DNA of 64,000 bases from Bugula neritina. Taxonomy: Eukaryota; Animalia; Bryozoa. The translations under genes and the position numbers were made by a program. This document shows positions 814 through 53,500 of the stretch, one piece after another. Below the pieces are notes generated by a model. The model saw only the letters and a program-made list of their open reading frames with translations. It searched no databases and was not told the origin of the DNA. Every line of letters begins with the position of its first letter. Positions within the stretch are counted from its first letter, which is position 1. The stretch lies in NCBI GenBank assembly GCA_964035545.1, contig OZ037769.1:9074129-9138128 (forward strand), given 5' to 3'.

Positions 814-1329
814 ATGATGACAGAAGTAGAAAATTTTCCCTTGCAAAATAAAGATCCTATATTTAATGAACAAGATGCAAATATGGCTGAAGACGAGTTA
901 GATGTGGCGAGAAAAGTTGTACATAATCGGAATACACTCATTAATAAAGTTTCGACCGGGAGAGATAATGCAAAGAATGAATGGAGTTTTTCAGAACTAA
1001 AAAAGAAACCTATCGCTATTATCCTCGTAGCCCATTTTTTATCATTGAATGTAATCAACTTAGTTATGAGCGGCAATGGTAGCTTTTCTGGAAAGATGTT
1101 TTCAACTAATTATACTTTAGACAGAATGTTCAATAACTGCACAAAACACTTTGAAATGACTGACAATTTAAAACTAGCTGTTTGCAACACTAAAGTTCAT
1201 GGAGATTTTATAACTATACAATATTCTTTCTTGAATGGTAATATGTCTCAGAGTGATGCGTCTCCACCATCCAAGCTGTTAACAGTTTTGACTGAACACA
1301 TTTTAGAAAATAATTATTACGGAATGTAA
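814..1329 (+). CDS. Maverick accessory protein, 171 aa, unknown function (weak PC4-like C-terminal segment)
   Basis: Open ORF flanked by TATA/Inr and a poly(A) signal; HFEMTDNLKLAVCNTKVHGDFITIQY loosely resembles a PC4-type beta-sheet. Confidence 0.55.
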   Translation: MMTEVENFPLQNKDPIFNEQDANMAEDELDVARKVVHNRNTLINKVSTGRDNAKNEWSFSELKKKPIAIILVAHFLSLNVINLVMSGNGSFSGKMFSTNYTLDRMFNNCTKHFEMTDNLKLAVCNTKVHGDFITIQYSFLNGNMSQSDASPPSKLLTVLTEHILENNYYGM

Positions 1330-1529
1330 TGTTTTTCTGTATACAACTCATAGCCTATAATAAAATGTTATATGGAAACAAAAAAACATGTCTCATGGTC
1401 CAACTCTATTTGCAGCTCCATTTTTAAACTTATAACTTGATAAAAATTTTCTGAAACTCAAAAAGCAGAAAAAAGATAATTAACCTTATGCTAATGATGT
1501 CCGAAACTTTGACAGAGTAAAAATTATTA

Positions 1530-1945
1530 TTAGCAAAAATCAGGAGGTGACACAGCGGTTTCCAATTTAATCAATGGGAAGTAAAACATAATAAAATATG
1601 TATAACCTACGTAAACTGATATACTATCGCCCAGTTATTAAACCCTAGATGGGTGGATTGTTATTAAATTTTAACCACTCAATTCCTCATTATAGTTAGA
1701 AATCGGAAAATTTTTCAGCTAAGATAAATGACACGGCAATTTCTAAATTACGGATGGGAAGTGTCCCAGTTAAAATTTAAATACATATGCAACTGTCAAA
1801 ACACGTATCACCTACGTAAACTGATATAATATTGCTTACGTGAGTAAACCTTAAACCGGCAGATTATATTTAAAATGTTACCACCCAACTCTCTATAATA
1901 AAAAAGAGGTAAACTTTTAGTTAAGATAAATTTCATTTACGTAGG
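1530..1945. repeat. Imperfect ~205-bp tandem duplication carrying CCTACGTAAA motifs
   Basis: ACCTACGTAAACTGATATA at 1605 and 1810; paired ATGGGAAGT and TAAGATAAAT blocks; inverted copy TTTACGTAGG at 1936-1945. Confidence 0.8.
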
Positions 1946-1965
1946 AATAAATTACAAAATCTCAG

Positions 1966-2030
1966 TATATAAAAGCCTCGAAAAACTTCTATGTTTCATC
2001 GCATCTCAAACCATACAGCAAACACCATGG
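1966..2030 (+). promoter_or_regulatory. TATA box, initiator and strong Kozak start
   Basis: TATATAAAAG 1966-1975, TCATC 1996-2000, ACCATGG with ATG at 2027. Confidence 0.65.
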
Positions 2031-3248
2031 GAGATTTAGTAAAGAAGTTAGAAGCTGAACTACTACAACTCAGAAGAAAAGTGGGAAAAACGAGTACTAG
2101 TTCCAGTACAGTTGAACCACTCAAAGCCTTAAAGCCTTCTAAAAGAAAAAAGTAAGTAATAATATATTTCTTTTGGATATCTTACCACTATAACCGGTTA
2201 GAATATTATTAACACGAGAATGATTTTAGTTTACTATAGCGTTAGCTTTCTATAACTATGCTAACCTTTTTTATCAGCTAAAAGTAGTATCTTATTCATT
2301 ACAATAATATTATTTTAGTGAATCAAAGCGTAAGAAACCGGCATCAATTTCAAAGGTGGATGAGTCGACTAGCGAGCCATCTGTATCTACCAGCGTGAGG
2401 TTAGTAGAATATCGTAACTCATCAATCATCTGTAAGACTCACAATTAATTGTATTCACTTGACAAACTATAAACAAATAGAAAGACGTTTGTCGAGTAAT
2501 AAATTATATTACGTAGAATAAGTTACATATTATAAAGCATAGTAATAAATCCCTCTTTTTTAGCGTTACTACCATTCCTTCCTCTATGACGTCGTCTATT
2601 CCATCCGCTAGTTCCTCTACTGCTACAACTGTTACTACAAGTGATGATGCTGCCACTGCTGCTACCGCTGTCGATCAGAGCAAAACAGCTGCAAATGAAG
2701 AAGGTTGCTATCTAGTTCCTCTTAATTATGATCAATCACAATTCTCCTACTACACTGACAATGACAAGATAATACCTACATTTAACCATTCGCGTAAAAA
2801 ATTTTTCAAATCCGATGAATTTAAAGGTGAATTAAAAATTTACGAATGGAAAATTCCCAACAGTGGGCCATGTTTATATGTAAAAAAATCCAAACACCTA
2901 GAACTTTTTAAAACAAAGCTAGCTAAAATTTTTGAAAAAAAAGTTAAATTTTACGGTAAAAGTGAAAACGCAACATTGCTCGGGTGTCATGTTGACGTGG
3001 TCAGAAACATGAAAGATGAGATTTGCGTAAACGCTGTAGTCAACGGACAACCTGTGTTATTAAATGTACAACAACTTTATGGAAAAGTGGGAAAATTAAC
3101 TTGCGTTTTGAGAAGCGGTGTGATAAAAAAAGTAAACGAGGAGTTATTTTGGTCACTAAATGTGACCGAAATTAAAGTAGATGACATATCACCAGATGAA
3201 TATAATTATTTTAAGCGATCGGAGCCAATCATAAAATTTTTAGGCTGA
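2027..3248 (+). CDS. Three-exon Maverick gene (2027-2151, 2319-2399, 2564-3248; 296 aa), putative OB-fold ssDNA-binding protein
   Basis: GTAAGT..TTTTAG and GTTAGT..TTTTTTAG introns, both phase 2, join an open frame: coiled-coil/basic N-terminus, Ser/Thr/Ala linker, globular domain ending KLTCVLRSGVIKKVNEELFWSLNVTEIKV. Confidence 0.75.
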
Positions 3249-3364
3249 CGGACTGACACTGAATTTATAACGATATGAATATGTTGTATTTTTTGGTGAT
3301 GGGGAAATATTTTATGTTGGTGAATGGAATACTTTTATGCGTATTATTGTTTAAAATATTGTTA

Positions 3365-3525
3365 CAATATATCTCAATATATACTCGGTGAAAAGAAATT
3401 CAATTCTAGCACCGCTACTATTGAACACAGAATGTATAAAAGCAAGTTGTTAATATACAACATCTATATACTTCAATCTATTTCAATCTATTTCAATATA
3501 TCTTAATATATACTCGGTGAAAAAG
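3365..3525 (+). repeat. Pair of ~31-bp direct repeats flanking a TATA box upstream of pPolB
   Basis: CAATATATCTYAATATATACTCGGTGAAAA at 3365 and 3494; TATAAAAG at 3435. Confidence 0.75.
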
Positions 3526-3732
3526 TTTAAAACACTGTTCTTCTGGCTCTGATGAAGAGTGTAGTAAACCTGACAATTCTAACTGATAATGCCACTATAT
3601 GTCAAGTATATACATTTAAGAATGTATCTATTTACATATTATTAAACTATCACTCTATTTGAAGTAATTTTCTTTGATCCTTGCATCTCTATCAAGGTGG
3701 TTAAAAGAATAATTTATACTTCAATGTTTTAG

Positions 3733-6700
3733 AAAAATTCAAGTGTCACATATGTGGAAAAAGTTATAACCACAGGCAAAGTTTGAGTAGACACCAAAGT
3801 ATCCACAAAAAAAGATGTGATCAATGTAAACGGTTGTATGCACCGTGGAAAACGAATCACCGATGTCATAACACGGTAATTTATCTACTGAGTGATACGA
3901 TACGATATGAATATGATCATACTACATATACTATCACAACAAACTCAAAGCTAACTAATCAATGGTAATCTTGGTAAATTTTAGAATACAAACTCAAACG
4001 GAGCAGAAAGAAGGTCAAACACAAAGCCTCAAATCACTTTCAGTGATGATATTGAACGCTATCAGTACAAAGGCATTTACGAAGAGGAAACAAATGCTCT
4101 ATTGAGAAAAAACTGGTCAGCTATAAAAACGTACAACAGAAAAGGGAAATATTGTAGTGTCTACAATCGATTGATAAAAGACAATAACATTATTTCTACT
4201 TTAAACAATAAAGAAGTGAAATTAATATTTCATGAACAAACATTGAAATTCAAATGCAATGCTTCAATTGGTTTTATCCTTTTGAATCAAAATGAGGAAA
4301 AGTTGAGATACTTTCATGCTAGCATGGGTGTTGATAAACTTTTTGCCTTGCCAAAGCTAATAGAGAATTTACAAGCTTTCAATCAACTTGTGAAAGAAAT
4401 GACAGAAAAAGATTTCGTGGAGAAAGCAATTCAGAACAGGCCAAACACTTCGTGGAGTGTTCACAAAATAACAAATATTACATTGTATGTATTTCCTATA
4501 CCAGACCACAATATCGGATGCCCTATATCTCCATCTGAGAGAACAAAACAAAACAAAGCAATTATAACAGCTAGCACTAATACAACTGGAAGACTGTATG
4601 AAGACAACTTATGTCTATTTAGAGCTCTAGCTTACTCAAAGGGGCAGCAGAGTACTTTAACACAGTCTACGAAACATTATTATGAAATGTACTTGAATGG
4701 TATGAACAAACTGAATCAAGATTTTAAAGGAGTGCCTTTATCAGACCTCAGATTTGCCGAGAGAATACTAAACTGTTCTATTAATGTGTACACCTTGAAA
4801 TACAATACAGGGAAAGAAGCTAATGCAAAGCTTATGTACAGAGCTACTACCAATTACAAACACAAACTAAACCTACATCTAGAGGAATCACATTTCAGTT
4901 GGATAAAAAACATCTCTCTTTACACAAAGTCATACAAATGTACATTTTGTAACAAGCTAATGAAATCAGTCAGAGCGTTGAATAGTCATAGCACAGTATG
5001 TACAGCTGGTGAAACAAACTTTGTGTATCCCTACGGGGTGTATACTCCGTCTCGATCTATTTTTGAAAAGCTTGAAGATGTTCACATCACAGTTGATGAA
5101 AATAGACGACATTATCCGTACTTTGCTGTGTTTGATTGCGAAACGATTATGTCTTCGATTGATTTATTTGCAAACACAAATACAATACACTATAAAAACA
5201 AACACAAATTGGCTTGTATAAGTCTATGCTCAAACGTATCTGGCTATACACAACCAGTGAATTTCATGAATTCTGGAAATGAATACGAGCTGGTTGTGAA
5301 AATGATGGATTTCCTTACAAAGCTGTCTGAAGTATGCTACCAGAGATTGCTTGTTAGATACAATGATGTGTTTAAACAACTACGTGAAAAAGCTGACGAG
5401 TGTATCAAGAAAGAAATTGAAGCTAGTTGTAATAACAAAGCAGTGAACAATGTCAAAAAAAGTTTGAATCACTAGAAAGTCAACTCCACTGTTATTTGAA
5501 AGACTTGATGGTCTTGTCTTTCAACGGCGCTGTCTATGACATTCCATTGATTCGACAACATATGCTACGGTATCTATTAGAACAAAACCAAAAAGTTTTG
5601 TTTACAGCTAAAAAAGGAAACAAATACGTGTGTATTCAAACGGAAAAATTAAGATTTCTAGACGTGCTCAATTTTCTTGCTCCAGGGTTTTCGTACTCTG
5701 ATTATTTAAAAGCTATGGGAGTTGAAGGGGAAAAATTCTTCTGGCCTTATGACATATTCACATCTATGGAAGTGCTAGACAGAACAGAGTTCCCCGCTCA
5801 TGAAGAGTTTTACAGTAAACTGAAAGGTAAAAACATATTCGTTCAGGAGTATGAAAAATGCAAAGAAATATGGGTACAGAAAGAAATGAAAACATTAAAA
5901 GACTCACTAGAGTACTACAATAACGAAGATGTCAGACACTTTATACCAGCATTATTAGAAAAGCAAAATGAATTTTACAAATCATGCAATCTTGATTTCA
6001 AGTCAGCTATATCTATACCAGGACTAGCGATTCAATATTTATTTCAATTAAAAGACCCAGAAGCGCCAATCTTTCTGTTTGGTGATAAGTTTAAAGACAT
6101 TCACCAACTTATCAAATCAAACATTAGAGGTGGTTTATCAATTGTGTTCTCAAGGTATCAAGAAGCTGGCGCAACAAAGATTAAACCTGAATACTTTGGT
6201 GACCAAACCAAAACTACGCAAACATGTGTAGGATATGATGCGACAAGTTTATATTTGAGTTGCCTAGTGAAAGATGTGCCCACAGGAGCCTTTGTAAGAA
6301 GGCGGAGAGAAAATAGCTTTAGAATAGAAAAAAGCTACTATTCGGGTGAAAAAGCCACAGTATGGCTAAAATACATGTCAAAGCTGCTTGGAGTCAAAAT
6401 TCAACACAAGTTTAACAGCACCGAACGTCAAATAGGTGGACGAAACATACCAGTCAATGGATACGCCCTGGCGAATGATGGTAGTGAACTAGTGTTCAAC
6501 TACTTAGGATGCTGGTTTCACGGACATCTATGCGACTATTGTCCAAATGGAAAGTTTATTAACAAAGAAAAAGATTTACAAAATCAAATAGACACATACA
6601 ATACGCTGAAATATTTCCAAGATTTGGGTTACAGAGTCTACCATACTTGGGAGTGTGAATTTGATAATTTGAAAAAGGAAAACAGTGATGTCAGTGAGTT

Positions 6701-8137
6701 CTGCTCAAATCTGGACTTCATTGTTGATTCAAGATACGTAATATCAGAAAGCAAAATACTGGGAGAAATCAAAAATGGTTCAATGTTTGGAATGGCTGAA
6801 GTTGATATAGAAACACCTGAAGACTTGAAAACAATATTTGCTGAATATCGACCTATACAAAAAAATGTACTGATTTCAAGGGATGACATAGGCCCACACA
6901 TGAAACAATTTGCAGAACGAAATGGTTTACTAAAAAAGCCATCACGTACTTTAATCAGTAGCTATTTCGGGAACAAAATCCTTTTATCCACCCCGCTACT
7001 GCAATGGTACCTACAACACGGCTTAGTGGTTACAAAAGTATATCAAGTAATTCAATACAAGCCATCAAAATGCTTCAAGCTGTTTGGTGAAAAGGTAATG
7101 GAGGCTAGGAGAGCTGGTGACCTCGATTCCTCAAAGAAGATTATATCGGATTCATGCAAACTAATAGGTATTTAGTAAATATTGAAATGTTTAAACATAG
7201 CACTTATTCAATGGTAATTAATATGCAAATCACTTAAGCATCTAGCAAGAGCGATAACTTTTGCATTAATTAATTAATCAATATATTTCAAAATAATCCA
7301 CTTCGCTATATTTCAGGAAACTCCGCGTATGGCCGAACACTAGTCAACCTGGAGAGTCACACTGATATCCTATATTATGATGCTGAAGAGACAAACATTT
7401 CAAGACTGGTAAACAATCCAAGATTTAACAGCTTACAAGAAATTGATTCTCAACTAGTTGAAATTGAATCACGAAAAGCTAAGATTAGACTCAATGTACC
7501 AGTACAAATTGGCTTTCAAGTATTGGAGTATGCAAAGCTAGCCATGTTGAAATTCTATTACGATTTCGTGTTAAAGTTTCTATCTCTAGACAGTTTTGCT
7601 TTGATTCAAATGGACACTGACTCAATGTATTTAGCTCTAAGTGAAAAAACTTTGTACCTAGCGGTTAAAAGTGATATGAGAAATGAATTTGAACAAGAAC
7701 ACACTAGTTGGATGTGTAGAGAATATTGCGATGAACACAAGTCACAGTATTTTCAATGTATGTTTAACGGGCAAACCTGGAATCCATTAGACTGTTGTAA
7801 AGCTAGTGCCAAGTTCCACAAAAGATCTTTGGGGTTGTTTCACTGCGAAAATGTCTCCCGAGGTGTTGTAGCGCTTTGCTCCAAATGTTACTATTGTTTC
7901 GGGGAAGAACCTAAATACAGTTCAAAAGGTGTCAGTAAATTGCACAACAACTATACCGAAAAAGATTACTCCGATGTATTGATAAATCAGAAAATTGCTT
8001 ACGGTACGAACAAGGGTTTTCGAGTAAAAGGTGAAGAAATATTCACGTACGTTCAAAATCGAAAAGCTTTAAATTATTTTTACGGAAAGAGAATTGTATC
8101 ACAAGATCACGTGACAACCAAACCTTCTTTACTGTAA
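3733..8137 (+). pseudogene. polB: Spliced protein-primed family B DNA polymerase (exons 3733-3875, 3985-7167, 7317-8137) with one frameshift at the A7 run 5455-5461
   Basis: Exo I VFDCET, Exo II FNGAVYD, Exo III YYNNEDV, Pol A GYDATSLY, Pol B KLIG^NSAYG restored by splicing 7168-7316, Pol C MDTDS; N-terminal C2H2 finger CHICGKSYNHRQSLSRHQSIH. First exon/start uncertain (candidate ATG 3599 with donor at 3606). Confidence 0.93.
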
Positions 8138-8219
8138 AAAAAACTGTATTCAGTTAGCGCGTTCAGTTAATTGGTATTTCACTGTTCGGTTGATAGGTCG
8201 CAACAATCAATATTCTACG

Positions 8220-8672
8220 ATGGAAAATTTATATCTATTACAGAAAAACGGTTATAATTATATATGGTACAAGCTTTCGAAAATGAGTAGACAACATTAC
8301 GTTAACTATTGTATAACGCAAACCGTTTTGGACATGTACAATAAACATCAAAATTGGAGTGAGGAAGAAATAAATGAATTGGTCGAAATAGCCGAGGATA
8401 TGTACGAGACTAATGGTTACGTTCAGTTTTGTAAAGTGGCAAAAGATTTGACTGATCCAAATATCTCAGCTATTCGCTTAGAAACAAATTTTTTCTTGTG
8501 CGTGCAACTTTGCAAAATGTATATCGAGGCTGGAGAACATTTCGCAGTGAAATATTTTATTCAACAGATCCAATGGAACTTGGGAATAGCTCTCGAGAAA
8601 CAAAACAATGTACAATTGTTTATTTTGTATATAATTGTGTATATTTGCCTAAACTTGCCTAAACATGCCTAA
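8220..8672 (+). CDS. Putative viral Bcl-2-like protein (150 aa from ATG 8220)
   Basis: Helical protein with BH3-like LVEIAEDMYE, BH1-like YVQFCKVAKDLTDPNISAIRLETNFFLCVQLC and a hydrophobic C-terminal tail LFILYIIVYICL; by-eye match only. Confidence 0.55.
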   Translation: MENLYLLQKNGYNYIWYKLSKMSRQHYVNYCITQTVLDMYNKHQNWSEEEINELVEIAEDMYETNGYVQFCKVAKDLTDPNISAIRLETNFFLCVQLCKMYIEAGEHFAVKYFIQQIQWNLGIALEKQNNVQLFILYIIVYICLNLPKHA

Positions 8673-8720
8673 ACTTGCCTAAACATGGCTGAACTTGCCT
8701 AAACATGCCTGAACTTGCCT
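8651..8720. promoter_or_regulatory. Tandem array of 7 p53-family half-sites (RRRCWWGYYY) with zero spacing
   Basis: AAACTTGCCT AAACATGCCT AAACTTGCCT AAACATGGCT GAACTTGCCT AAACATGCCT GAACTTGCCT: six perfect, one with a single mismatch. The repeat is certain; the function is inferred. Confidence 0.7.
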
Positions 8721-8815
8721 AAATCTATTTATACTTTTTTATGCCTATTAATATTTTTGTACATTACTTGATACAATTATTTGGGAATAAACTCTCGGAA
8801 TATACAGTTAACATC

Positions 8816-9466
8816 ATGAGCTTACCTTTCTACCATACATTTTCAGCGATTGTAGCTGGTCCTTCAAGGGCTGGTAAAACTCAGTGGGTAAGGAAATTGA
8901 TTACCAACAGTCATACAATGATATCACCTACACCTGAAAAAATAATATATTGTTATAGTGAGTGGCAGCCACTGTTTAGCTCATACAACAACGTTGAGTT
9001 TCATCAAGGTATTATCGATATACAAGAATTAAACAAAAATATAAAAAACTTGATAATATTTGATGATTTAATGAGTGAAATAGATCAAAATATTGAAAAC
9101 ATATTTACTAAGCACAGTCACCATCGCAACATAAGCGTAATATTTATAACACAGAATCTGTTTCAAGACAACTCTCACATGAGAACAATGTCTCGAAGCG
9201 CTTCGCATGTTGTTGTATTTAAAAACCCTAGAGACGTAAACCAGATATCCTATTTGGCAGGACAAATGTTTTCTAAAAACCAGAGTAATTTTGTTGTTGA
9301 AGCGTTTCGAGACGCAACTTCTGTCCCCTTTGGGTACTTGGTTATAGACTACAGGCAAGAAACAGAAGACTATTTGTGCATTAGAACAGGTGTATTTCCG
9401 GGTGAGAAAACCTATATCTATTTGTCAAACAGAAACGCTATTTCATTACAAAGAAATGCAGCTTGA
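8816..9466 (+). CDS. A32/FtsK-like genome packaging ATPase
   Basis: Walker A GPSRAGKT, Walker B LIIFDDL, HHRNISVIFITQNLF, FKNPRD; likely start ATG 8816. Confidence 0.95.
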   Translation: MSLPFYHTFSAIVAGPSRAGKTQWVRKLITNSHTMISPTPEKIIYCYSEWQPLFSSYNNVEFHQGIIDIQELNKNIKNLIIFDDLMSEIDQNIENIFTKHSHHRNISVIFITQNLFQDNSHMRTMSRSASHVVVFKNPRDVNQISYLAGQMFSKNQSNFVVEAFRDATSVPFGYLVIDYRQETEDYLCIRTGVFPGEKTYIYLSNRNAISLQRNAA

Positions 9467-9480
9467 AGCTGACATAAATC

Positions 9481-9831
9481 ATGACCGCTAGAATTAAAAA
9501 ACACGCCAATACTCTAAGTTATTTAGCTGAATGTGATAAACACAACTGTAAAGCAATCATCAACGCAGCGGGTAGTGAACTGTTGAACTGTTTCTCGGAT
9601 ATTTGCTACAACGTATTAAAAGGCAAGGTGTCATTGTCACCTACTGAAGAAAACAACTTACGTAAATACAAAAATATTTTAAGAAAGATTGCTGATAAAA
9701 AGAGTACACTGAAAACTAAAAAAACACTGGTACAGAAAGGAGGGTTTCTCTCGGCTCTTTTAGGACCACTAATAGGAAGTGTTCTAGCACCACTAGCGAA
9801 AGGAATATTCAGCGGTTTTAGAAAAAGATGA
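9481..9831 (+). CDS. Conserved Polinton/adintovirus virion protein with a protease-releasable amphipathic C-terminal helix (candidate membrane-lytic protein)
   Basis: ICYNVLKG..LRKYKNILRKIAD..QKGG|FLSALLGPLIGSVLAPLAKGIF. Confidence 0.8.
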   Translation: MTARIKKHANTLSYLAECDKHNCKAIINAAGSELLNCFSDICYNVLKGKVSLSPTEENNLRKYKNILRKIADKKSTLKTKKTLVQKGGFLSALLGPLIGSVLAPLAKGIFSGFRKR

Positions 9832-10553
9832 ATTCGCAAAGCGCTAGAAAATTCTTATTAGTGGATGCCGCGGATCTAAAACACAACTCATTTGTAAATG
9901 CTGATGTCAGCAAAAATAATGATTATCAACAAGTCGAGAGAAACAAACCTTTGATTACTAAAGAACTATTTGCCGTAGATAACCTAATGAGTGAAATCTT
10001 AAATGACAACACGCTATCAGAAAATGAGAAAGTAACTGCTTATACCAACGCGTTGACTAATTATCAAGAGTTGAAAACTACTACTTATAAGAAAATAACT
10101 AGCACAAGGCTGCCTACTTTATCAAAGAATAGTGAACCACAACTAAAAGAAACAGAAAGTCTTACATCTTATAACCCACTACTATCTATCCCTCAAAAAT
10201 TTAAAACAAAGGCGAGTCAACTTTGGGATATACTGAAAAAATATGGTAAAGTTTCTGTAAATGATGCGGGGCAGGTAACTATTAACGGCAACCAACTACG
10301 CGGAAGCAATTTATCTGATCTATTAAATCTTGCGGTTAATAGTCAACTGAAAGGTAAAACATTGGAAGGGTGGAAATAATTTAGACAAGTATTAATTGAT
10401 TACAATGTACCCAAACTACTCATTAATCAAAACGTTATTGAAGAGAAATCTAAAAGTAGAAGAGAGTCTAGTAAATTGTCATCAGGCGAGTGGGATCCAT
10501 ACGATGGCAAGGCGAAAACAAAAAAAGCAAAATCCAGACTCCAGCTATACTGA
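9828..10553 (+). pseudogene. Conserved Polinton hypothetical protein with a premature TAA at 10377
   Basis: MSEILND..LSENEKV..Y...L, GSNLSDLL, EGWK*FRQVLIDYNVPKLLIN continues in frame past the stop to TGA at 10551. Confidence 0.7.
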
Positions 10554-11620
10554 TAAACACCTATTTCAATATTTCTAAACCAGCCGGATTTGGTAGTAAA
10601 GCAAAATTATACAAATCATTAAAAGACAAAGTAAGCAAGGGTGTAATTGATAGATGGTTTGAAAAAACTGACAGCTATAACCTACATAAACCTTTGCAAA
10701 AAAACTTTCCCATACGAAAGTATATTGTATCAGGCATTAATGCCATGTGGCAAATTGATTTAACAGATCTCCAACAGTTTTCATTCGAAAATAATGGGTT
10801 CAAGTATATACTATTAAGCAATGACACATTCAGTCGTAAAGCCTACGGTGTACCACTCAAAACTAAATTTGGTTTAGAAATGAGTAGAGCTATGAGGGAG
10901 ATTATAGAAAACGAAAACAAGAATACTCCACCAGAAATGATTTTATCAGATAGAGGCAAAGAATTCTTTAACCCTCAATTTAAAGCAATAATGAAAGAAT
11001 ACAACATAAACCACTTTTCATCTAACAATCAATAAATTAAAGCATCCATGGTTGAAAGACTGCAAAGAACACTAAAGGCTAAATTGTTTAGATATTTTAC
11101 TCATCAAAACAGTCACAGATATCTTGACATTCTCAATGATCTAATATCATCGTACAATAACTCGAAACACTCGGCTCATAACTCAACACCGAACGATGTG
11201 ACAGCTAACAATCAAGAAGAAATTTGGCATAGACTATACACAGATAGTCAGAGTGGTCAAACTAACAAACTAAAATACAATGTTGGAGATCTCGTTAGAA
11301 TATCGAAATATAGTACAGTATTTAAAAAAGGATACCTTCCTTCTTGGAGTGGAGAAATCTTTACCGTAGCAAAAATCCACACTACTAATCCTCCAGTGTA
11401 TTCACTCACGGATGACAGCGGTGATCAGCTAGAAGGAACATGGTATAAACCGGAATTACAAAAAGTAAACACCAAGAGCAACACCTATAAAATAGAGTCA
11501 ATTGTTGGTCAGCGTACTGTAAATGGTAAAAAACAATTTCTTGTAAGGTGGGCTGGATATCCGCCAAGTTTTGACTCGTATGTTGATAAAAGAGATGTAA
11601 TTTTAAACTATAAGAATTAG
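10504..11620 (+). pseudogene. Polinton DDE (rve) integrase with SH3-like domain and C-terminal chromodomain; nonsense at 11033
   Basis: WQIDL, SDRGKEF, NNQ*IKASMVER (DDE triad); VGDLVRISK..FKKGY..WS.EIF; YKIESIV..FLVRWAGYP chromodomain; start uncertain. Confidence 0.93.
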
Positions 11621-11653: not shown

Positions 11654-12424
11654 ATGCGCGTTGTTTTACCTAGTAATGCTTCGTTGAAGCATTTTCCGAA
11701 AAATAGGCTTTCAGTATACACAGTTCAATTGCCTCAAAGTTTAGATTTTACGGATGGCTCTTACGAGATCGGATTGAGTGAGATACAATTTTATAAATCA
11801 TGGTTCAATGTGAAACAGTGCAGCATAACCTTAAAAGTAAATGAAGCTGAAGAAACAGTGCATCTAGATGACGGTTACTACAAATCAGATAGAAAGCTAA
11901 TACAATCTATCAATCAAGCAATAAATGACCAGTGTTGAAATCTGAAAGTAAAATTTAATTTCTATTACAACGACGTCAATAAGAATTTTTATGTCATTGC
12001 TGAAAATGTTAGAGGTTGCTCTATAGACATCACATACTCACCATCTCTTGAGAAAATACTTAATGTACAGGAAGAAAAAATGGAGATAAAATCAATGACC
12101 GATGACACAATTTTGGTCAAGTACAATACTCCAATAAGATTACATACAATATTTAACCTGATGGTGTATACAGATGTAGCAGAATCTAGTATTGTTGGAG
12201 ATACTCAGGCTCAACTACTAAGAGTTGTAGGAGTCGAGGATGGTCATTGGAGGTTGCAGTCCACTAACTTTAACAATGTACAGTACTGCAAAATAAATAA
12301 AACGCATGTTTCGAGTGTATCAATTTATATATACACGGATTACGGTGAAAGAGTACCATTCACGCATGGACGTACAGTGGTAACAATAGATATTCGAAAA
12401 GTTAAACCTATAAACCTAATATGA
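11654..12424 (+). pseudogene. Minor capsid protein (penton), in-frame TGA at 11936
   Basis: VLPSNAS..FPKN..YTVQLP..YEIGLSEI N-terminus; VYTDV..SIVGD..LLRVV and TDYGERVPF C-terminus; both ORF halves in the same frame. Confidence 0.88.
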
Positions 12425-12852
12425 GAATAATTCCATTCGATTGTGATGCCGCATCAAATAGCTATAGACAGTTATATGAACAATCAGGAAATGGAATGAT
12501 TCCAATATTTTCAGGAGAAAAATATCAAACAGGATACGGTTTAGGGAGCATATTTGGTAACATACTCAAAGCAGCATTGCCTGTTGTAAAACAAGGTGTA
12601 AAAAGTTTAGGAAAGACAGCAATAAATACTGGTCTAAACATTGCCAGAGATAGTTTATCCGGTAAACCATTCAGAGAGTCAATCAAAGATAACATCAACA
12701 GAGCGGCTGGAGAGGTTATTACTAAAGGTATTACATACGTCACCAACAGAAATCGAAATAAAAAAAGGAAGCGTCAGACTAACAGAGTTACTTCTTCCAA
12801 GTCTTCAAAGGTGAAAAGACGTAGGGTTACTAAACGCGATATCTTTTCATAG
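12421..12852 (+). CDS. Basic core/virion protein precursor with protease-site-like QxGxG motifs
   Basis: QSGNG, QTGYGLGSIFGNILKAALP, Arg/Lys-rich tail ending RDIFS. Confidence 0.8.
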   Translation: MRIIPFDCDAASNSYRQLYEQSGNGMIPIFSGEKYQTGYGLGSIFGNILKAALPVVKQGVKSLGKTAINTGLNIARDSLSGKPFRESIKDNINRAAGEVITKGITYVTNRNRNKKRKRQTNRVTSSKSSKVKRRRVTKRDIFS

Positions 12853-12863
12853 AATACTATACT

Positions 12864-14167
12864 ATGAGTTTCATAATAGAACATAGCTGCCTCGCTGGCA
12901 AACCCGAATTAAATTTATTTTCTACACTACCTACTTAAGCATCAATCGAAGAAGGATATCACGTAGAACATATGCCCACAACCTCATTGAATGATGAGGG
13001 ACCTATAAAATTCTTAATCTCTGGTGATTCAAACAACTACCTTGACCCCAGTTTAAGCTATCTATTATTAGAGGTGAAAGTAACAAAAGCTGACGGTACC
13101 GATCTCGATGCTCAAGGTGATGCGGCTCCTATAAACCTTTTGGGTCACACATTATTTCAACAAGTAGAAATTATGCTAAATTAATGATGTAGTTATTTCC
13201 AACGCTTCTAATCTCTACCACTGCAGAGCTCTTATAGAAACTTTACTAAGTTACTCCGATGAAGCTAAAAAGTCACAACTATCAATGTCACTCTACTCAA
13301 AGGATACACCCGGAAAAATGGATCATATTGATGGTGATAATGAAGGCTTGGAAGCTAGAAGACGAATTACGGGGCAGAGTAAAACTGTGCAGTTAATTGT
13401 TAGACCACACGCTGACATATTCTTTCAAAGACGATTCATTTTAAACGGAGTAGACATGAAATTAAAGTTTGTGAGGAATCACAACAGCTTAGTGCTAATG
13501 GCTGGTGAAAACTCTACTTGCAAACTAAAAATCCTAAACGCATCTTTTTTCTTTCGAAAAGTTAAAATCAATAGCGGAATACAATTGAAGCACATTGAAA
13601 ATTTAGACAAGAAATTATTGCCCGCCGTTTATCCTATCAGAAGAGTTGATATAAAGTCATTCAATATCGCATTGGGTTCATTGTCTTGGAACGAAGAAAA
13701 TTTATTTCACGGTATTCTGCCTAAGAGGATAGTTATAGGTATTGTAAACGCTGGTGCATTCGAAGGCGCGTACAATTTGAATCCTTTCAACTTTCAGCAC
13801 AAACATTTAAAATATACAAACCTAGTCGTTGACGGGAAACAAGTAGCCTACCTCAGAAGGCATTGGTTTCAGACTACACAAATCATAATACTCTAAGAAA
13901 CTATTTTACGCTCTTGGAATCAACGATGGCGGAATAGATATAGATAGAGAGGAATACGAAAAAGGTTACAGTCTAATGGCCTTTGATTTAACTCCTGACC
14001 TAGATTTGAGCACTTGCTTTCATTTGATGAAGCGAGGAACAATGAGATTAGAGCTAAAGTTTTCTCAGGCTCTTGACACACCCGTTAATGTGATTGTCTA
14101 CTCCGAATTTGACTCTGGTATAAAAATTGATAAGAATAGAGCCGTACTTACAAATTTCTACGCGTGA
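12864..14167 (+). pseudogene. Double jelly-roll major capsid protein (hexon-like), several lesions
   Basis: KPELNLFSTLPT*ASIE, PHADIFFQRRFILNGVD, PKRIVIG, NPFNFQH, AFDLTPD; TAA at 12936, frameshifts near 13180, 13848 and 13922. Confidence 0.92.
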
Positions 14168-14706
14168 TGAATTTTAAAGAAATATATTCCATTCTTGAGA
14201 ACGATGAGTGGGTGAAAAATATGAACTTCATCGGTGTATTTCCAATCGATAGAATACCTAGTAGTAGTTTGACGGATTATCCTTGCTGTGGAGTTGTAAA
14301 CACTAAACCTCAAAATCATCCGGGAGAGCACTGGGTAATGTTTCTAAAGACAGAAAATAACACAGGAGTTTATTTTGACTCTTTTGGAAGTGGTCTTTAC
14401 AACATGCCAGAGGTTGCGGCTATATTTGATTCAGTGGACTCTTGGCAATTTAGTAGCACTCAGGTACAATCTATATTTTCTACAGTTTGCGGACAATATT
14501 GTATTTTTGTGTTAACGCATTTAGCCAGAGGTTTCTCACTAGAACACATTATATCTTTAATAAATGATTGTTGTGATACATACGCAAATGATGCTTTTAT
14601 ATTTAATTACATTAATCAAAAATGTAGTAATTTTCTAAATAAAAAATTGGAAATTGTAGACTTACCTTTTATTTTTGAGCAAGCTTCTTATCCTGTTGAA
14701 ATTTAA
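14167..14706 (+). CDS. Adenain/Ulp1-like (clan CE) cysteine maturation protease
   Basis: GEHW (His), YFDSFG (Asp), QSIFSTVCGQYC (Gln/Cys); AATAAA at 14743 follows. Confidence 0.95.
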   Translation: MNFKEIYSILENDEWVKNMNFIGVFPIDRIPSSSLTDYPCCGVVNTKPQNHPGEHWVMFLKTENNTGVYFDSFGSGLYNMPEVAAIFDSVDSWQFSSTQVQSIFSTVCGQYCIFVLTHLARGFSLEHIISLINDCCDTYANDAFIFNYINQKCSNFLNKKLEIVDLPFIFEQASYPVEI

Positions 14707-16907
14707 AGCTGTATTATTCTATTATGACATTTTTTTCAAGAAAATAAACGCATGGTGAAAAAAAATCTCTTTCTGGTTATTGAATATTATACGAGTGTAG
14801 AATATACCAAAGTGACAACAGTGATATAACGAGGCAAACTAATCATAGATCAATTTTTTAGTACGTGAGACTCTGACTACTTAGTTAGTCAAAAGGTGTA
14901 ATTTGTTCACTGTAAGCTAAATTTAATAGCTACCACCTGTCAACTTTACGGCTTACAATGCTAATTCATCATTAACGAATACAATGCCCACATAGTTAAC
15001 GAGCTGCTAATTTCCATAGCCATAGAGTCTACACTACGTTGACAAATTGGCTGATGCGAGAAGCTTACTTCCATAGCCATAGAGGGCGCTTATTATACTA
15101 CTCAGCAGTGACTCATCTCGACTGCCTGTAAACTATGAAGCTTCAAATCGTATACTGTAGGCCCATGGTCCAACTCTAAAACAATTACACACTCTACATG
15201 AGACAGGATCACTGGTTGTTAGAGGGGATAGGGAGGAGGGAGGGGGGAAGGGAAAACAAAAACGTCTAAATTTAAGAGTAAAGGCGGGTGTACAATGCAA
15301 AGGTCTTTGAGCATCACTGATATTTTCATAATAACTGCAAGGCACAAACTCTTGCTGATGGACAATCAGACAGAAAAACTCTTTCAATTAACCAAACCAA
15401 TATCAACCTGTGTCTGCTTTGTAAAAAACACCAAGAACAGAAATTTAGGAAAGATAACTCCCACCTACTCCTATCTTGCACCCGGTGCTAGTGCAATGAA
15501 ATTGAAAGGATATATTTCATAGTCATATATTCAGCTAGTTCTTCTGAGTAGAAAGAAATAACATTGCCGAAAAAGTTGAAGAGGTGAAGCACTGTAGAAT
15601 TTTGGTAAGTTAAATTATGCATATGTTATTATTTATTTGTCAAAATAATATTATTTTATATTTTCTTCTACTCAGTAGTGCCAACAATGAATATTTTATC
15701 ATTGTTTAATGCAGTCGTGAATCTCAACAATGATTTATAATAATATGCATTGTCAATTTTCGCAAAATTCCAGTCCTCAGTCCTCTAGTTCAAGATTGGC
15801 ATCACTATACACACAAGATTTAAGAAGTTGTGTCATGTCAGCTAACCAGCACAAGAAGTCTACACAGTTTGTTTGCAGACGTTTGCATTTGACATTAGGA
15901 CTAAAGTGTTCACTACATGGAGATTTCAACTTCACTTTTTTCAACTTGTTTTGGATCTACTTGTCACATCTGGTTTGCTCACTCTGATAGGTTTATTTCA
16001 TTAACTTTCTAGAGCAATTTTCCTAACTTTCTGAAGAGTTTGTAGTGATGCAAAATGTTATCAGATATCGCTTGGCAACCTGCCAATACAGTTAAACAAC
16101 TGGAGCTGCGTTACTAATTGTAAGAGAGAGCACAACTGACAAGAACTCAAATTTTAGTAATTGTATGGAAATAATATCAAATATATCCCACCTATGGGTG
16201 AATGCATTATGCACATAAATAATAGTGTGCGTTATATAAAATAGAAAACCTGAGAACTCAGGCAAACCTATGCAAAAATCTTTCAAAAAGGTTAAATCGA
16301 AAAGAGAGTTGAAAGCTGGAAAAAGATTATTAAGGAGTTGAAGTTTTCAAATGTGGAGATGGATCATAGAATGTATAGTTGAAGGCTTGCCATTTTCAAT
16401 AAATACAACTATTATGAATATAAATTCATGAATAACATGAAGCTAATTGAGGAACTTTAATTCATGCAGAGATTTAAAACATTTACAAATATAAATGTAA
16501 AAGCTACATCTTACAAGATTTTTGTTTTAAAAAGTTATAAAATATAATGTATGATTCAGTGCTTCAGTACTAGTGTAAACACTTGTATGATTAATTCATT
16601 AAAATATCCATAAAATACAACATAAACAGTGTAAACGGTCATGGAAAATAAAGAACAGAAAATACTTTAAAAAATATAGACTATACTCAAAACAAAATCT
16701 ACATTTATCAAAAATAAGGTTTAAAAGTTAGTATTATGATCACAGGCAGAAGCGGAGATTGTATAATTTTACCTAAAGTAACTTAGAACCTTCTCATTAA
16801 ACCTCTAGATATTACGCTGCATGGAATGCATGAAGAAAAATTAAAAAATCAAATAATTTCCTAACTTTGGTTGTCAACTTAGAGAGGAGACAGTGTGGGA
16901 TAGAAGG

Positions 16908-19900
16908 CTATGAGAACCTATCCTTGAGGGCACTGAGCACCCCACCCATTAGACTCTTTGTCAACTTTTCCTCCTTGCTAGATACCTTAGTGTATACTTT
17001 GCTCAATATGGGGGCGGAGCTATCAACAGGAAGTACGGTGACATCATCTTTAGAAAACCCTTCAGGAAGATCAAACTCTATAACTACTGGAGAATTTGAT
17101 GGCTTATACCTGAGAGTGCAGGTAGCTGCATTGATGTATGTAGTAGTGCCATCTGTGTACATTCCGTAGCCTGAGAAGTAAATTATTACCAGACATACAT
17201 AAGTAGTATATATAATCTAGTATAGGCATAGGTTTTCTGTAACCCAGCAGTGCTTTTATATCATTGGCAGTGTCTAAGGCTTATTGATTCAACTTCACAT
17301 AATAATATGTGCATCAGAAAAATAAAGCCAATAAAGGCCAAAGGCTATGTAAATGCATTATGTAAGGTTAGAATCTAGATGATAAAGGAGCAAGATTAGG
17401 GGATACTGCGAACATGCCAGGGTTAGTAGTGCTAGTAAACTATTGGTATATCTATCACATGTATGTGAAATTTAGAAGGTGCAAAGCCTCCTTTTATAAT
17501 ATGATTGTAGGATGCACAACACATGGATAAGTGCATGTTTAGCATTACTAGGTTTAAAATCCACTTTAACCAATTTAAACACAAAATTGTTTAAAGTTAT
17601 TGATAAGTAAATGGATTGAAACAATACCAAGGTTACAAGTATATTGCAATGCTAATTATCTAAGTGATAATGATATCATCATAAAACTAGAGCTGTAACT
17701 TTATCATTTGTCTCTACTCATTGTATTAGGTATGAATTGTTGATAAGTTACTGAAATAGCATTGACTATCATAAAAGATGAGTGATTTGTAATGAACCCT
17801 TTTTTTTGTTTCAGTACAAATAAATTTTGAGGTTATTGGTATTTCATAAAATCTAGTGATGTGTGACAATCAGATGTCTACTTATAGGGTTACCAACCTC
17901 TCTTTCAACAGCCTGACAGTACTACTACTAACCTTCATGTATATGTCCAAACAAGTGCACCTTCGGTTTAACTCGCTGAGTGATTGTAGAGTAGAGTTCA
18001 ACACAGCCAGTTCGCTCATCATGTGGAGTTAAGTCCCCTACACCTGTGACAGGGCAGACACTCATATATGATATTATATAACACAGCAAGTAGAAAAGGT
18101 GTTGTCAAGGTGATTAGCAACACACAGCAACACATACCCAGTGGAGGTCCATGCGTCACCACTATATCCGTATCTGTAGGAATTCTATCCCAGATATTCA
18201 GAAGCTCTGCTCCCCTCATGGCATTATATGCCCACCCATGGAAGTATGGAGTCCTAATACATCACAAAACTTTTATATTATGTTGGATAAACAATTCCAA
18301 TGTCTCAAGTCTAAACTATTCTAGGATACAATCAATTTTGTAAACAAACACAATCTATGGGCAGAAGCTCACCATGCTGAGCCCCATATCTTCAGACCAC
18401 ACACAGACACTGAGCTGTTGTCCAAGTATATACATCCTTTGAGCAACTCTTTAGGGTGCGAAATTTTCAATTCACTCAACTAAAATAAATGAATACTAAA
18501 TCAATTTCTGAAATAATTAGGAAAGTTTTGAGTGTAATTAGACATACAGGTAACCCCTTCTAACCCACTGCCCACTGCTACATACACATCTTTTAACCAC
18601 TACCAGACCTGTATGCCAGTAACTAGTGTACAGCTTGAGCTAAAGCTCTCCAAAGCAATATTCATGCTTCTTTACACTTGGCGCTTACAATTAATTAGAA
18701 ATGTCAATAAAACTAAGACGCTATAGAGTGTAGAGGGTTGATGCAATTACATGTCCAACAACCATTACTGACTCTGTGAAATTCAAACCCTGCTGCCAAA
18801 ACAACACCTTTATCCACCACTAGATCTACTACAAAGAAAGTACCTCTAATCTTTAAATCTTTATCCGTATGGTTACAGTGCATAATGCTAGTTATCACTT
18901 CCTTCAAAGCTATGATCACTCAACTTAATAGTATGAATATGTTAGATAAACTACCACTATTTAGCTCTCAGTTACCACCCAATAGTATATACACTGCTGC
19001 TGATTATACACTGTACAGTCAATATAACTGTGTTGACAATTGATATGATTTCATTTCAAGTCACCGAAAGGGGTTTTTACAAGATTTGTAAGAGAAATTA
19101 AAATGATTACATAATAATATGAGCTTGTTTATCTGTTAAGTAAAAGTAATGAGTCACCACCTGTTATAATAAATATGATTGTCAACAATACGATTCACCT
19201 GCAAGGTGCACAGTTATCATACTATAACACACCTTTGCATCAATAGCTTCAGCACCTGACTGCCCACATATTCTCTCCACAGTTGAGGGGTCACAGTAAC
19301 CGTCAGCATATCCTAAGCAGAGCTCGTGGTTACCAGCTATAACCACCTTGTGCTTATGTGGCTGCTTTTCTACAGAACACAAAAAAATGTAGTGCTGCCA
19401 GTTTGAATTTTCCCTAAAGAAAGACAACTAGAACCTGGTATTAAAATCAGCTTCAAATGTACATCACATATTCATTTATCATTGGAAATAGTGGCAGTAA
19501 TCAAGTTTATTATATATTAATGGTGAGAGAACTCTAGGCACAGTGATAGCTGTGAGTTGCAAGTAGACAATATCCTTACTAATAATGAAATTAGTTTGAA
19601 ATCATCTATCTTACAGGAATAGCTTAGAACACTTTTCTAGTTGGCCAACATAACAGGAATAACAATAATATGATTCCCAACAATTTACAGACCTATAAAG
19701 TCAGCAAACTTTTGAACTTCCTCTACACGACCTCGCATAGTGAAGTCTCCTGCATGCAGAAGGATATCACCGTCGGGGATTTTCATCTGACTAGTCTTGC
19801 TGTGAGTGTCAGATATGCATACAACTCTAACCTGCAACAAGCAGACCTTCACAGTAGACCAGCTGCTAGCACACAGAGAGCTAGATCAGTAGATCTTTTC

Positions 19901-48881: not shown

Positions 48882-49301
48882 GGGTCATTTTACTTAATTT
48901 AGTATACACTGGAAATCTCCAGCTTTTAGCCATTTTTTACAATATAGCTGCTAATGAACATGGGTTTTTGCCCAAAACTAGTTAAATGTCAATCAACACC
49001 CATAAATAATCAAGGTTCTTTTTAATTTTGATTGATTTTCCATGTTTTTTCCTAACTTTTCAGCTACTTTTGATGGCAGACCATACGAAAAACCCATAAT
49101 GGTCTGCAATCAAAATTAGCTGAAAAGTTAGGAAAAAACATGGAAAATCAATCAAAATTAAAAAGAACCTTGATTATTTATGGGTGTTGATTGACATTTA
49201 ACTAGTTTTGGGCAAAAACCCTTGTTCATTAGCAGCTATATTGCAAAAAATAGCTAAAAACTGGATATTTCCAGTGTGTACTAAATTAAGTAAAATGACC
49301 C
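48882..49301. repeat. Foldback inverted repeat: two ~203-bp arms, 14-nt loop
   Basis: 48882-49084 is the reverse complement of 49099-49301 with few mismatches. Confidence 0.95.
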
Positions 49302-50500: not shown

Positions 50501-53500
50501 ATGAGACTATACATGTTTTCCATCATACTCTTTCTATCAGAGGTAGCAGAGACAATTGACATAACGTCAGCTACTCAAAGTTCTGCATTTACTGCCAGCG
50601 TAACTCTAAGTCATGGTGGCTCACTGAGAGGACTGACTACTGTATTTCAAAGTGTGCCAGTAGATGTTTTCTTAGGTAAGACTTGTATTCCAAATATGCA
50701 CTCAGCATGTTGTCTTGTAATACTGTTACGGAGTGTGCTTGTCAGTTGTCAATATAACTATGAATATAGTATTAGACATTAATAATGATAAATGTCCACC
50801 TTTTATATGGCTCCTAGTTTTGACAGGCTCTTTTAATTCACTCTATTACTGTTAAAATTGGCTGCGTCTTCATCTCCTTCTTCACAGGCATGTTCAGACC
50901 ACTCTAACCTTCTACACCTCATCACATCTTTCATTAGCATTATTCTCACTTCTAATGTTATTTACTTGTTTATTTAATCTTCCTTTACACCTTTTTTAAT
51001 ATATCTAGCATAATGTTTTTGGACTAGACTGCATTAACATATGCCAATGTAGAATTTTCAAATTGACTAGTATCTTTTCATCACAGTGTGATCGAAAGTG
51101 TAATTTATACCATTTTTTCTTTGCCTCAGTATGTTGAGTTCAACCTCTTTCCCCATCCCCCTCTTGGTGAATAGCCCTGCTGAGATATTTCTACGGAATA
51201 TACCTGAGAATAAATTTCTCTATCTCATAGTTGCACTTCTTTACATCCCGATGTTGCCAACTTCTGCTGTTGTTTGTGAATATTTTAACTTTGTTCTGCT
51301 CAGTTTCAACCTGACTCTCTCTCTATCCTCTCTCTACGCTGCAGAACTCTTTCCCAATATTCTCAACTGTTATAATATAGAACGAAATCTTCCACACTGT
51401 AGGTTCATCTATAGGATCTAGTGAATTCTATTAAGAGTTATTCACAGGTATCTGTCATATTCTACCATTCCATCATATTAGCTATGTCTCTATGTGCTCG
51501 CTATTGCTATTGTCTTCTTTTTAGTCAATTTTTAGGTATTAGATATGCAAAGCCACCCATTGGCGAGTTGAGGTTTAAGAAACCCGAACTGTTTCCTTTT
51601 TGGGAAGGAGTGAAGAATGCCACTAAAATCGGGAATAAGTGTCCTCAGCTTGGACCTGGTAGGTGTTATTGTATAACGTATTCAGCTGTTGGTTATTGAA
51701 GTTCTTCATTTTTCTATTTCTAGTTTTTACTTTTATTGATTTAATTTTCTTGGTCAGACAGTATAGAATAAATTTTTATATTAATATATAGAGCTTCCCA
51801 TTACTACTATTTTGACCTTTCAATCTGTCGTTACATCTGAAATTTGGTTTCTCGTTTACTGGTGTATATATAAATCTGACAATTCTGGAACAAAACTTCG
51901 ATTGAGTAAAATACGATGTTTTATGACTAGTTTGCTTTCATGCACAACTTTGACAATTTTGTTTTCGTGCAACACAAAGTTTTATGTACTGTGAATTTAT
52001 ATTTTGTGATGTAGGCAGGTAAAGATTTTCAAAAGAACAATATTCCATTCACAGATCATACTTCCTATCACCATTGCATTTTCCTGGTGCACATATTAAT
52101 GTATTATGTAATTTTGCTGTTTGAAATTTTCTGTTACCATATAAAACCTTTAATTAAATGTTGCATTTTTGAATCTTGTTTTACTATTTTTCAAATCACT
52201 GCTATAGTTGGTTTTTGCAAGGCATGCTTATAGGACATAGACGGTCTTCACCGTCTAGTCTTTATTCTTGTATTTTTAACTCGCATTGCTTTAAATGTGC
52301 GTATTGTATTAAGGGTCATATTTTTATTAGGCCTTCAACGGTTTCAGGTAATATAATGACTACTTTTTAGGTGGAGTGGACGGAAGTGAAGACTGTCTGT
52401 TTATGGATATTACGGTGCCACGACAAGGGCCACCAGGGGAAAAGAAAGCAGTTATGGTGTGGATACATGGTGGTGCTTTCTCATTCGGTGCTGGCTCTAC
52501 ATTCATTGGTACTCCGTTGGCAGTAATGGGGGATGTTATTATGGTAACATTCAACTACAGATTAGGAATGTTGGGGTTTCTTTACGATGGGCTAGGTATG
52601 TGTAGTTATACTACAACAAATATATATTTTTTGTTGTGGTCACTGGTCAGTAATTTTTTGCAAAGTTTTCTCAAAATTCTGAATTTTTTGCTAAAAAATG
52701 TATTTCTTAGCAAATATTTTATTTTTGATTGAGTAGCTACAGTTTCAATACCTTATCCTTTATTGATATGTACTGCTACTCCTTCATTTACCAAATATAT
52801 GTGGTAGCAGAGTTATGAGCTGTGTGTGTGTGCCTTTAAGTAACCTGATGTTCAGGACAGTGCTATGACTAACAGGAACTGGAAACTATGGTCTCTGGGA
52901 TCAAAGAGCTGCGCTGGTGTGGGTTAAGCAGCATATTGAGAGGTTTGGTGGAGACCCGAACAGAGTGACCATCTTTGGCCAGTCTGCAGGTGGAGGAAGT
53001 GTGTCAGCACAGATTGTGGGTCAGCATAGCGAGGGGCTGTTCAAGAGAGCCATTACTCAGGTAGGAGTAAACTGGTGTTATTTTAATATTCAACTTTATC
53101 TATAAAACTTTGTATTTTTACAGCATATTTTAGCCATGTTTTTCTAGTTGAAACTGCTCAAGTATATAATAATTATAGATACTTTTGCAAAGTATAATTA
53201 CTATCTATTGTTGACCAATATAATTTAAGAGCAAACAATGAAATTTAAAAGTTGAAATTGTCATATAGAAGCACTATTGCCTGGTTTACCAAAAACCCTG
53301 GCAACCTGAAATTATGCATGTGTGTTGTAGTATTCAGCATAAGGATACTAAGATTCAGTTCTAAAATTTATGTGATAACCCTGCCAGGTGCAGCAATGGA
53401 GATATAATTTTGATTTTACTTTGTTTAGATTTATCCTAAACTCTTTTATTAGACTTCAGCTTTGTGTGCTTTAGATGCTGTCAAAACCAATGCTTCAGGC

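Follow-up and report, generated by a model that had tools for sequence, protein, structure and literature searches.

A lineage-restricted, near-perfect p53-type half-site array beside a gene with a predicted Bcl-2 fold in a decayed Maverick

Introduction

p53-family tetramers bind two zero-spaced half-sites, and half-sites clustered in tandem repeats are capable of driving strong transcription that depends on p53. Some viruses appear to exploit this pathway: reactivation of KSHV is reportedly assisted by p53, and p63 is said to act at EBV BARF1. In bacteria, SOS induction of prophages works by repressor cleavage. A natural half-site cluster, specific to the species, has been described at mouse Rbl2, where seven half-sites, six of them perfect, are bound and activated by p53 (PMC3386156; here and below, sources are cited for excerpts of their text). 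p53 elements are also known from mobile DNA, including the endogenous retroviral repeats LTR10/MER61 (PMC5580475), retrotransposons (PMC7498329) and the zebrafish element EnSpmN6_DR (PMC3485254), and p53 and DNA damage have been implicated in EBV reactivation (PMC5531659).

For Mavericks, the trigger that has been proposed is co-infection by a giant virus, and particles had not been observed as of 2021 (PMC8097293); none of the sources consulted here names a tested trigger in animals. The initial annotation of the locus described here knew of no p53 array in a Maverick, and our search of the full-text literature, whose coverage leaves out most subscription journals and supplements, agrees in finding no description of p53 sites in these elements. 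In the excerpted text of PMC10680173, Mavericks and p53 belong to separate talks, and the one paper found to pair adintoviruses with p53 mentions p53 only for an E4orf6-like gene. A p53/p63 gene is expected for an animal host (PMC7498329, PMC1964547), and a canonical element is bound by lysates of the invertebrate Nematostella, whose p63 (nvp63) shares the same consensus (PMC1964547). Here, we describe a tandem array of p53-type half-sites that lies directly ahead of the virion and integrase genes of a Maverick.

Results

The stretch of DNA analysed, referred to below as the window, is 64 kb long and contains a Maverick with every gene in plus-strand orientation. The initial assignment to this class is borne out by Pfam, which recognizes a retroviral-type integrase (rve, 2.3e-11), a chromodomain (Chromo, 8.4e-7) and an IVa2-type ATPase. 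The gene for protein-primed DNA polymerase B (pPolB; 4324..8137, +) is broken into at least three frames that are 43-58% identical to relatives by tblastn; its pieces had no Pfam match, and the DxxSLY and DTDS motifs visible in the broken frames are what we take to be polymerase motifs. The packaging ATPase (8816..9466, +; Pfam Adeno_IVa2, 6.2e-5, above cut-off) is the first gene of the virion and integrase block. A search at E 1e-20 or better gave 1219 homologues of it; the majority of the close ones start from the methionine equivalent to 8816, and another in-frame ATG is present at 8741. Downstream are two small Maverick genes conserved in relatives (9481..10379, +), the integrase with its chromodomain in two frames (10745..11620, +), and the likely minor and major capsid genes with a small gene between them (11654..14167, +). 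The capsid labels follow the usual Maverick gene order; both capsid genes are in pieces without a Pfam match, and their order is conserved in relatives at 25-59% identity. The block continues with a likely adenain-type protease (14167..14706, +), whose Pfam match to Peptidase_C5 (E 0.003) falls below the curated cut-off and whose place in the order is conserved in relatives. Mavericks typically have terminal inverted repeats with (AGT)2/(ACT)2 ends and are flanked by a 6-bp target duplication. An ACTACT at 15097..15102 (+) probably marks the right end of the element, as it corresponds to the (ACT)2 end motif in the excerpted text of PMC8097293; no left inverted repeat matching this end was found within the 64-kb window. 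As pPolB, the integrase and both capsid genes are interrupted, the copy is decayed and therefore cannot itself be an intact switch.

Several other features of the window were recorded. TACGT/ACGTA words are concentrated at 1500-2050 (8 counts versus 1.2 in shuffles, palindromes counting twice), upstream of a TATATAA at 1966; the words resemble bZIP or HIF sites, and the cluster is possibly an early promoter of the same Maverick. A 203-bp inverted repeat with 96% complementarity and a 14-bp loop (48882-49301) is probably a MITE. Exon-like host pieces at 52403-52732 (+; carboxylesterase, Pfam 1.5e-18) and at 18019-18219 (-; to our eye resembling a metallophosphoesterase) are consistent with an intron-rich animal genome.

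The array occupies 8651..8720 (no strand assigned) in the intergenic region that precedes the ATPase (8619..8815, +). As the initial annotation had stated, it consists of seven contiguous decamers: these zero-spaced RAACWTGCCT units fit RRRCWWGYYY perfectly in six cases of seven, while unit 4 (8681-8690) carries a single off-consensus base. A p53-family response element takes at least two RRRCWWGYYY half-sites with zero spacer, and the array provides them. In the window copy, the cores alternate between CTTG and CATG, and position 1 is A or G. Zero-spacer 20-mers with at most one mismatch occur six times in the 64 kb, all inside the array, against 0.12 expected, and none of 100 shuffles reached six such matches, which overlap and so are not independent. 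TRF delimits the repeat at 8645-8723, with a period of 10 and 7.9 copies. On either flank, the repeat tails off into a partial unit in which the core C is missing, and expansion was therefore confined to the form that fits the consensus. At the composition found here, the probability that a random 10-mer unit fits the consensus in at least one register is 0.15-0.19%, close to the earlier estimate of 10/4096.

The array had also been placed at the junction of the replication and virion genes, about 95 bp ahead of the ATPase start. The second half of that description stands, with 95 bases counted between the array and the ATG at 8816; on the other side, pPolB does not abut the array, the two being separated by a gene (8220-~8618) whose product is predicted to have a Bcl-2 fold.

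To determine how the array varies, we aligned sibling contigs from four sequencing runs (of 20 listed), representing two studies, over 8100-9500. The array is present in contigs of all four runs with a variable number of units, and the off-consensus base of unit 4 reads on-consensus in contigs of three of them. Among the differences listed, all five substitution positions within the array are inside the consensus in siblings, those other than the unit 4 base falling at core position 5 or at position 1 and each preserving the consensus; 43 further differences, beyond those listed, are distributed over the whole 8100-9500 stretch. Insertion-deletion differences amount to a 10-bp deletion in one run and a 20-bp deletion in another, both removing whole units. 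The listed variation among sibling copies thus preserves the consensus, and it comes down to just two independent kinds of variant, one at core position 5 and one at position 1; the chance that two random substitutions would both be tolerated by the consensus is 7-19%. The core position 5 variant yields CATG, which human p53 prefers over all other cores (PMC4323202). Little separates the sibling contigs from the window copy, most aligning at 90% or more, so retention of the array in them may reflect simple descent.

The same comparison settles the repeat unit. The initial annotation had taken a 20-mer to be the true unit, and the alternation of cores in the window copy is indeed as it described; because the siblings vary by 10-bp and 20-bp unit deletions and by A/T swaps at core position 5, however, we rejected the 20-mer in favour of a slipping decamer. 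This tandem repeat, 10 bp in period and conforming to the p53 consensus, is non-coding in sibling copies, as the upstream frames of two of them (P0121 and P0122) stop at the same residue, before the array.

Loose ends in the sibling alignments lead to similar sequence elsewhere. Those of runs X2 and X4, at window positions 8650 and 8682, belong to a second locus, in which similar units abut a different consensus-fitting decamer. In run X1, loose ends at 8679 and 8713 belong to a third locus, which has a similar decamer run and further half-sites nearby. In both loci the flanks differ from those of the window array and the runs are extended by other half-sites that fit the consensus; each locus could be another mobile element or a p53 target of the host.

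The gene between pPolB and the array (8220..8618, +) has a window frame that continues into the array, to 8672; sibling proteins stop earlier. A BH1-like stretch in this gene prompted structure prediction. The model of its own product (pLDDT 82) gave weak Bcl-2 rows, with a Foldseek TM of up to 0.58 and a VIA Z of 7.9. A Bcl-2 helical fold emerges mainly from the model of a homologue in another Maverick locus, L003, which is 26% identical to the 8220 product (pLDDT 84): Foldseek returned Bcl-2-family chains in all listed rows (probability about 1.0, best E 0.017), and in VIA, the 33 highest-ranked of 50 rows were Bcl-2-family folds (Z up to 11.3, with an rmsd of 4.2 over 133 aligned positions), whereas the best row outside that family reached Z 5.7. 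Among 18 family members, 6 had a Pfam Bcl-2 match at E no higher than 0.1, the lowest being 2.2e-5. For the 8220 gene, Pfam (with the gene alone), Atlas, a PDB sequence search and viral Foldseek gave nothing clear, and a PDB profile search ranked weak Bcl-2 rows below unrelated ones. Separately, the L083 fragment had no Atlas match. We conclude that the 8220 product is predicted to adopt a Bcl-2-type fold, from which it may act by blocking apoptosis. The poxviral proteins A46, A49, A52 and N1L share the fold with the L003 homologue model, and some of them act on other pathways.

The proteins P0128-P0145 form a small Bcl-2-fold family (20 representatives), most of them without a C-terminal membrane anchor and a few distant members with a hydrophobic tail. 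Bcl2 homologues have already been noted in adintoviruses (PMC8502044), and the gene maps of that paper may already show Bcl2 genes at the same position.

We examined more distant relatives through a metagenome scan (15 of 64 parts), which supplied the best 80 of at least 433 confirmed loci, their ATPases being 44-62% identical to the one studied here; it may have overlooked closer relatives. Three or more tandem half-sites were found in none of these 80 related Maverick loci. Dereplication left 60 families, 46 of them with over 200 bp upstream of the ATPase, and none of the 46 had three or more tandem half-sites in that upstream region. Perfect half-sites were likewise not enriched there (6 observed versus 4.2 in shuffles across the 46 families). 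A conserved array between pPolB and the ATPase of related Mavericks, for which the initial annotation had proposed a search, was accordingly not seen, and we rejected the idea of a general Maverick feature: the array is restricted to one lineage. This comparison covers the loci at 44-62% identity, relatives at 64-72% being seen as proteins only, and IMG/VR contained no relative of the ATPase.

Within the same best 80 of at least 433 loci, a clear member of the Bcl-2-like family occurs in one, L003. This locus shares the gene order and encodes the Bcl-2-like protein yet lacks the array, so array and gene do not form an obligate module. The only hint of p53 sites among these relatives is in locus L081, where two zero-spacer p53-like 20-mers with two mismatches each lie 353 and 206 bp upstream of the ATPase; at up to three mismatches, all upstream regions together held two sites against 0.2 expected, both in L081. 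Period-10 arrays of unrelated sequence were present upstream of the ATPase in 3 of the 80 loci. We also observed long tandem arrays containing CGTCA, which is CRE half-site-like, about 400-900 bp upstream of the ATPase in two loci (L072:1719-2006 and L073; 20 and 15 copies within 600 bp). Either repeats arise readily in this region or different lineages recruit different host factors there.

The absence of the array from all 80 relatives, L003 included, and the period-10 arrays in three of them favour a neutral origin, in which a minisatellite generated by slippage in a repeat-prone intergenic region would fit the p53 consensus by chance and might bind p53 without having been selected for it. 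The polymorphic unit number is as expected on this account, and the scan of about 250,000 windows from which the locus came makes rare coincidences likelier. Chance arrays, moreover, exist. Five perfect RRRCWTGYYY units in a row occurred in 20 cases in 596 Gb of genomes from prokaryotes, which to our knowledge lack p53, and in IMG/VR the p53 pattern had 2 matches versus 3 for a core-swapped control, showing that such arrays do arise by chance. The four-unit alternating CATG pattern had no IMG/VR match, and a two-unit pattern search returned only two isolated 20-mers, with no array. Arrays in L084/L086 and L085 were treated as chance, being uniform repeats in non-animal-looking viruses.

Other results speak against the neutral account. 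The prokaryote arrays were internally uniform in 19 of 20 cases, with one of the 20 mixed and two containing CATG, and the second sibling locus extends similar units with a different consensus-fitting decamer. Taking the frequency of period-10 arrays, the fit of a random unit and the tolerance of the two variant types together, (3/80) x 0.002 x (0.07-0.19), we estimate that such an array arises by chance in roughly 1 in 100,000 elements, giving 0.01-0.1 expected cases for an assumed 1,000-10,000 Mavericks scanned. A chance origin of the array is therefore disfavoured, and we consider the neutral minisatellite a rather unlikely, if serious, competitor.

One of the two IMG/VR matches is of a different kind. 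A gammaherpesvirus (L107; IMGVR_UViG_2974661529_000001), recognizable by its FGARAT tegument, BALF1 and ssDNA-binding genes, carries at positions 2107-2288 an array of 15 p53-type half-sites, 11 of them perfect, that is mixed and partly built of an alternating 20-mer; it lies ~2 kb upstream of the FGARAT gene.

The intergenic region surrounding the Maverick array contains three motifs that we label, on general grounds, as TATA boxes and a polyadenylation signal: a TATATAA at 8628 (+), TATTTATA at 8726, whose minus-strand reading is TATAAATA, and the AATAAA found at 8786. The better TATA box is downstream of the array and points away from the ATPase, making the direction of a putative promoter ambiguous, and the AATAAA may place the array in the 3' end of an upstream transcript. 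Tracts rich in TGTA/TGTGTATAT precede AATAAA in this intergenic region, both in the window (8620-8650) and in L047, L079 and L003; they resemble polyadenylation upstream elements.

This geometry leaves room for an array that is bound by p53 or p63 with another outcome: germline or epithelial expression through a p63-like protein, antisense or upstream transcription, silencing by the host, or titration of p53 by replicating copies that serve as a decoy. Two points count against this reading: p53 usually activates where it binds directly, and a handle that served repression alone is something a virus should shed rather than expand. It draws on the same sequence evidence as the activating one, and the canonical TATAAATA beside the array on the minus strand would suit it, as would the ability of p53 to suppress retroelement transcription (PMC7498329) and the expression of nvp63 in germ cells (PMC1964547). 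On balance, we regard it as unlikely.

The repeats could instead be bound, once per helical turn, by a protein that the virus encodes, in the manner of iterons or packaging signals; they could be recognized by another host factor, such as a forkhead protein, or they could act in RNA, at the 3' end of the upstream transcript. The 10-bp phasing and the adjoining IVa2-type ATPase gene would fit the first of these, the AATAAA downstream the last, and a loose TAAACA, present three times, the second. That loose motif was the only match when 14 other consensus motifs were compared with the array; there was no strict forkhead match and none to 12 others. A packaging or replication signal should be conserved, yet the array is absent from the 80 relatives; its fold is negligible (-4.9 kcal/mol), and its variation tracks the p53 consensus. 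We consider this group of explanations quite improbable.

Discussion

Our data reveal a genuine, near-perfect array of p53-type sites that is specific to one family and suggestively placed, next to a predicted viral Bcl-2. The explanation that we tentatively prefer, and to which we give slightly less than an even chance, is that of a p53/p63-responsive enhancer. A host p53- or p63-family protein, as predicted from the consensus match, would occupy the array; once bound, the array would activate rather than silence; its target would be the late block of ATPase, integrase and capsid genes; and under genotoxic stress such as DNA damage it would act as a responsive enhancer, while the adjoining predicted Bcl-2-like protein would keep the cell alive in the meantime by blocking apoptosis and so delaying death.

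In support of an enhancer, six units are perfect, unit 4 is restored in three of four runs, the variants stay in the consensus and the indels remove whole units. Only the consensus-fitting form has expanded, and at other loci it is extended by a different consensus-fitting decamer, while null arrays in prokaryotes are rarely mixed or CATG-containing. By analogy, the mixed array of the L107 gammaherpesvirus, the functional Rbl2 cluster of the mouse and the Bcl-2-fold neighbour may point the same way. Against it stand the 0 of 80 relatives with an array, the lack of half-site enrichment and the array-less L003, as well as the repeat-prone nature of the region and the fact that the herpesvirus is a single case; the minus-strand TATAAATA downstream and the AATAAA at 8786 would also be awkward for it. 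Poor conservation does not exclude function, because the mouse Rbl2 cluster is functional yet species-specific. Also against the enhancer, p53 occupies fewer than 8% of its in-silico sites in mammals and is able to suppress retroelements (PMC7498329).

A fuller version would have the array confer an SOS-like life cycle, switching on the integrase and virion genes upon genome damage while the Bcl-2-like gene holds off death; judged from sequence features, we find this possible but doubtful. Either way, the position of the array ahead of the virion genes suggests, for animal Mavericks, a trigger that can be tested and a tissue in which to look for it, namely damaged or germline cells. If the proposal is true, an animal Maverick would have its first identified host trigger, the reading of the p53 pathway known from retroviruses and herpesviruses would extend to endogenous DNA viruses, the gammaherpesvirus array would be a convergent case, and the adjoining Bcl-2-like gene would explain how the virus survives the p53 signal. 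If it is false, the locus is a clean example of repeat slippage producing perfect p53 sites.

Compared with known systems, the element itself is conventional: Mavericks, Polintons and adintoviruses have pPolB, integrase, ATPase, protease, a capsid block and the ACTACT end found here (PMC8097293, PMC8502044). For published Mavericks and adintoviruses, the excerpted sources give no promoter element or trigger of this kind, and the words 'p53' and 'promoter' appear 0 times in the main text of PMC8502044. The array resembles the fuzzy tandem repeats of mouse Rbl2, Ncoa1 and Klhl26 in its origin by tandem duplication and its lineage-specificity (PMC3386156). It differs in that the mouse clusters belong to host genes, contain spacers and have demonstrated binding and activation, whereas for the Maverick array, which has zero spacers and lies in a DNA virus-like element, both are proposed.

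Among mobile elements, a subtelomeric LTR10b/MER61 element with five half-sites is, like this Maverick, mobile DNA with p53 consensus sites. LTR10/MER61 and EnSpmN6_DR are, respectively, retroelements and a non-autonomous DNA transposon, and in the excerpted literature are studied mostly for their effects on host genes; unlike them, the Maverick array is internal, with virion and integrase genes following it and a predicted Bcl-2-like gene as its neighbour. SOS prophages are also integrated viruses that read host DNA-damage signalling, but in the Maverick a host activator would bind directly, and the likeness is one of analogy only. Gammaherpesviruses are latent animal DNA viruses whose lytic programme is coupled to the p53/DNA-damage pathway and which encode viral Bcl-2 homologues (BALF1 in L107); they differ in being episomal and in using immediate-early activators, and L107 has a tandem perfect array though none is described for EBV in the excerpted text of PMC5531659. 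p53 sites in retroelements and in clustered repeats were thus already known, and what we add is a p53-type array in a Maverick together with a neighbour of predicted Bcl-2 fold.
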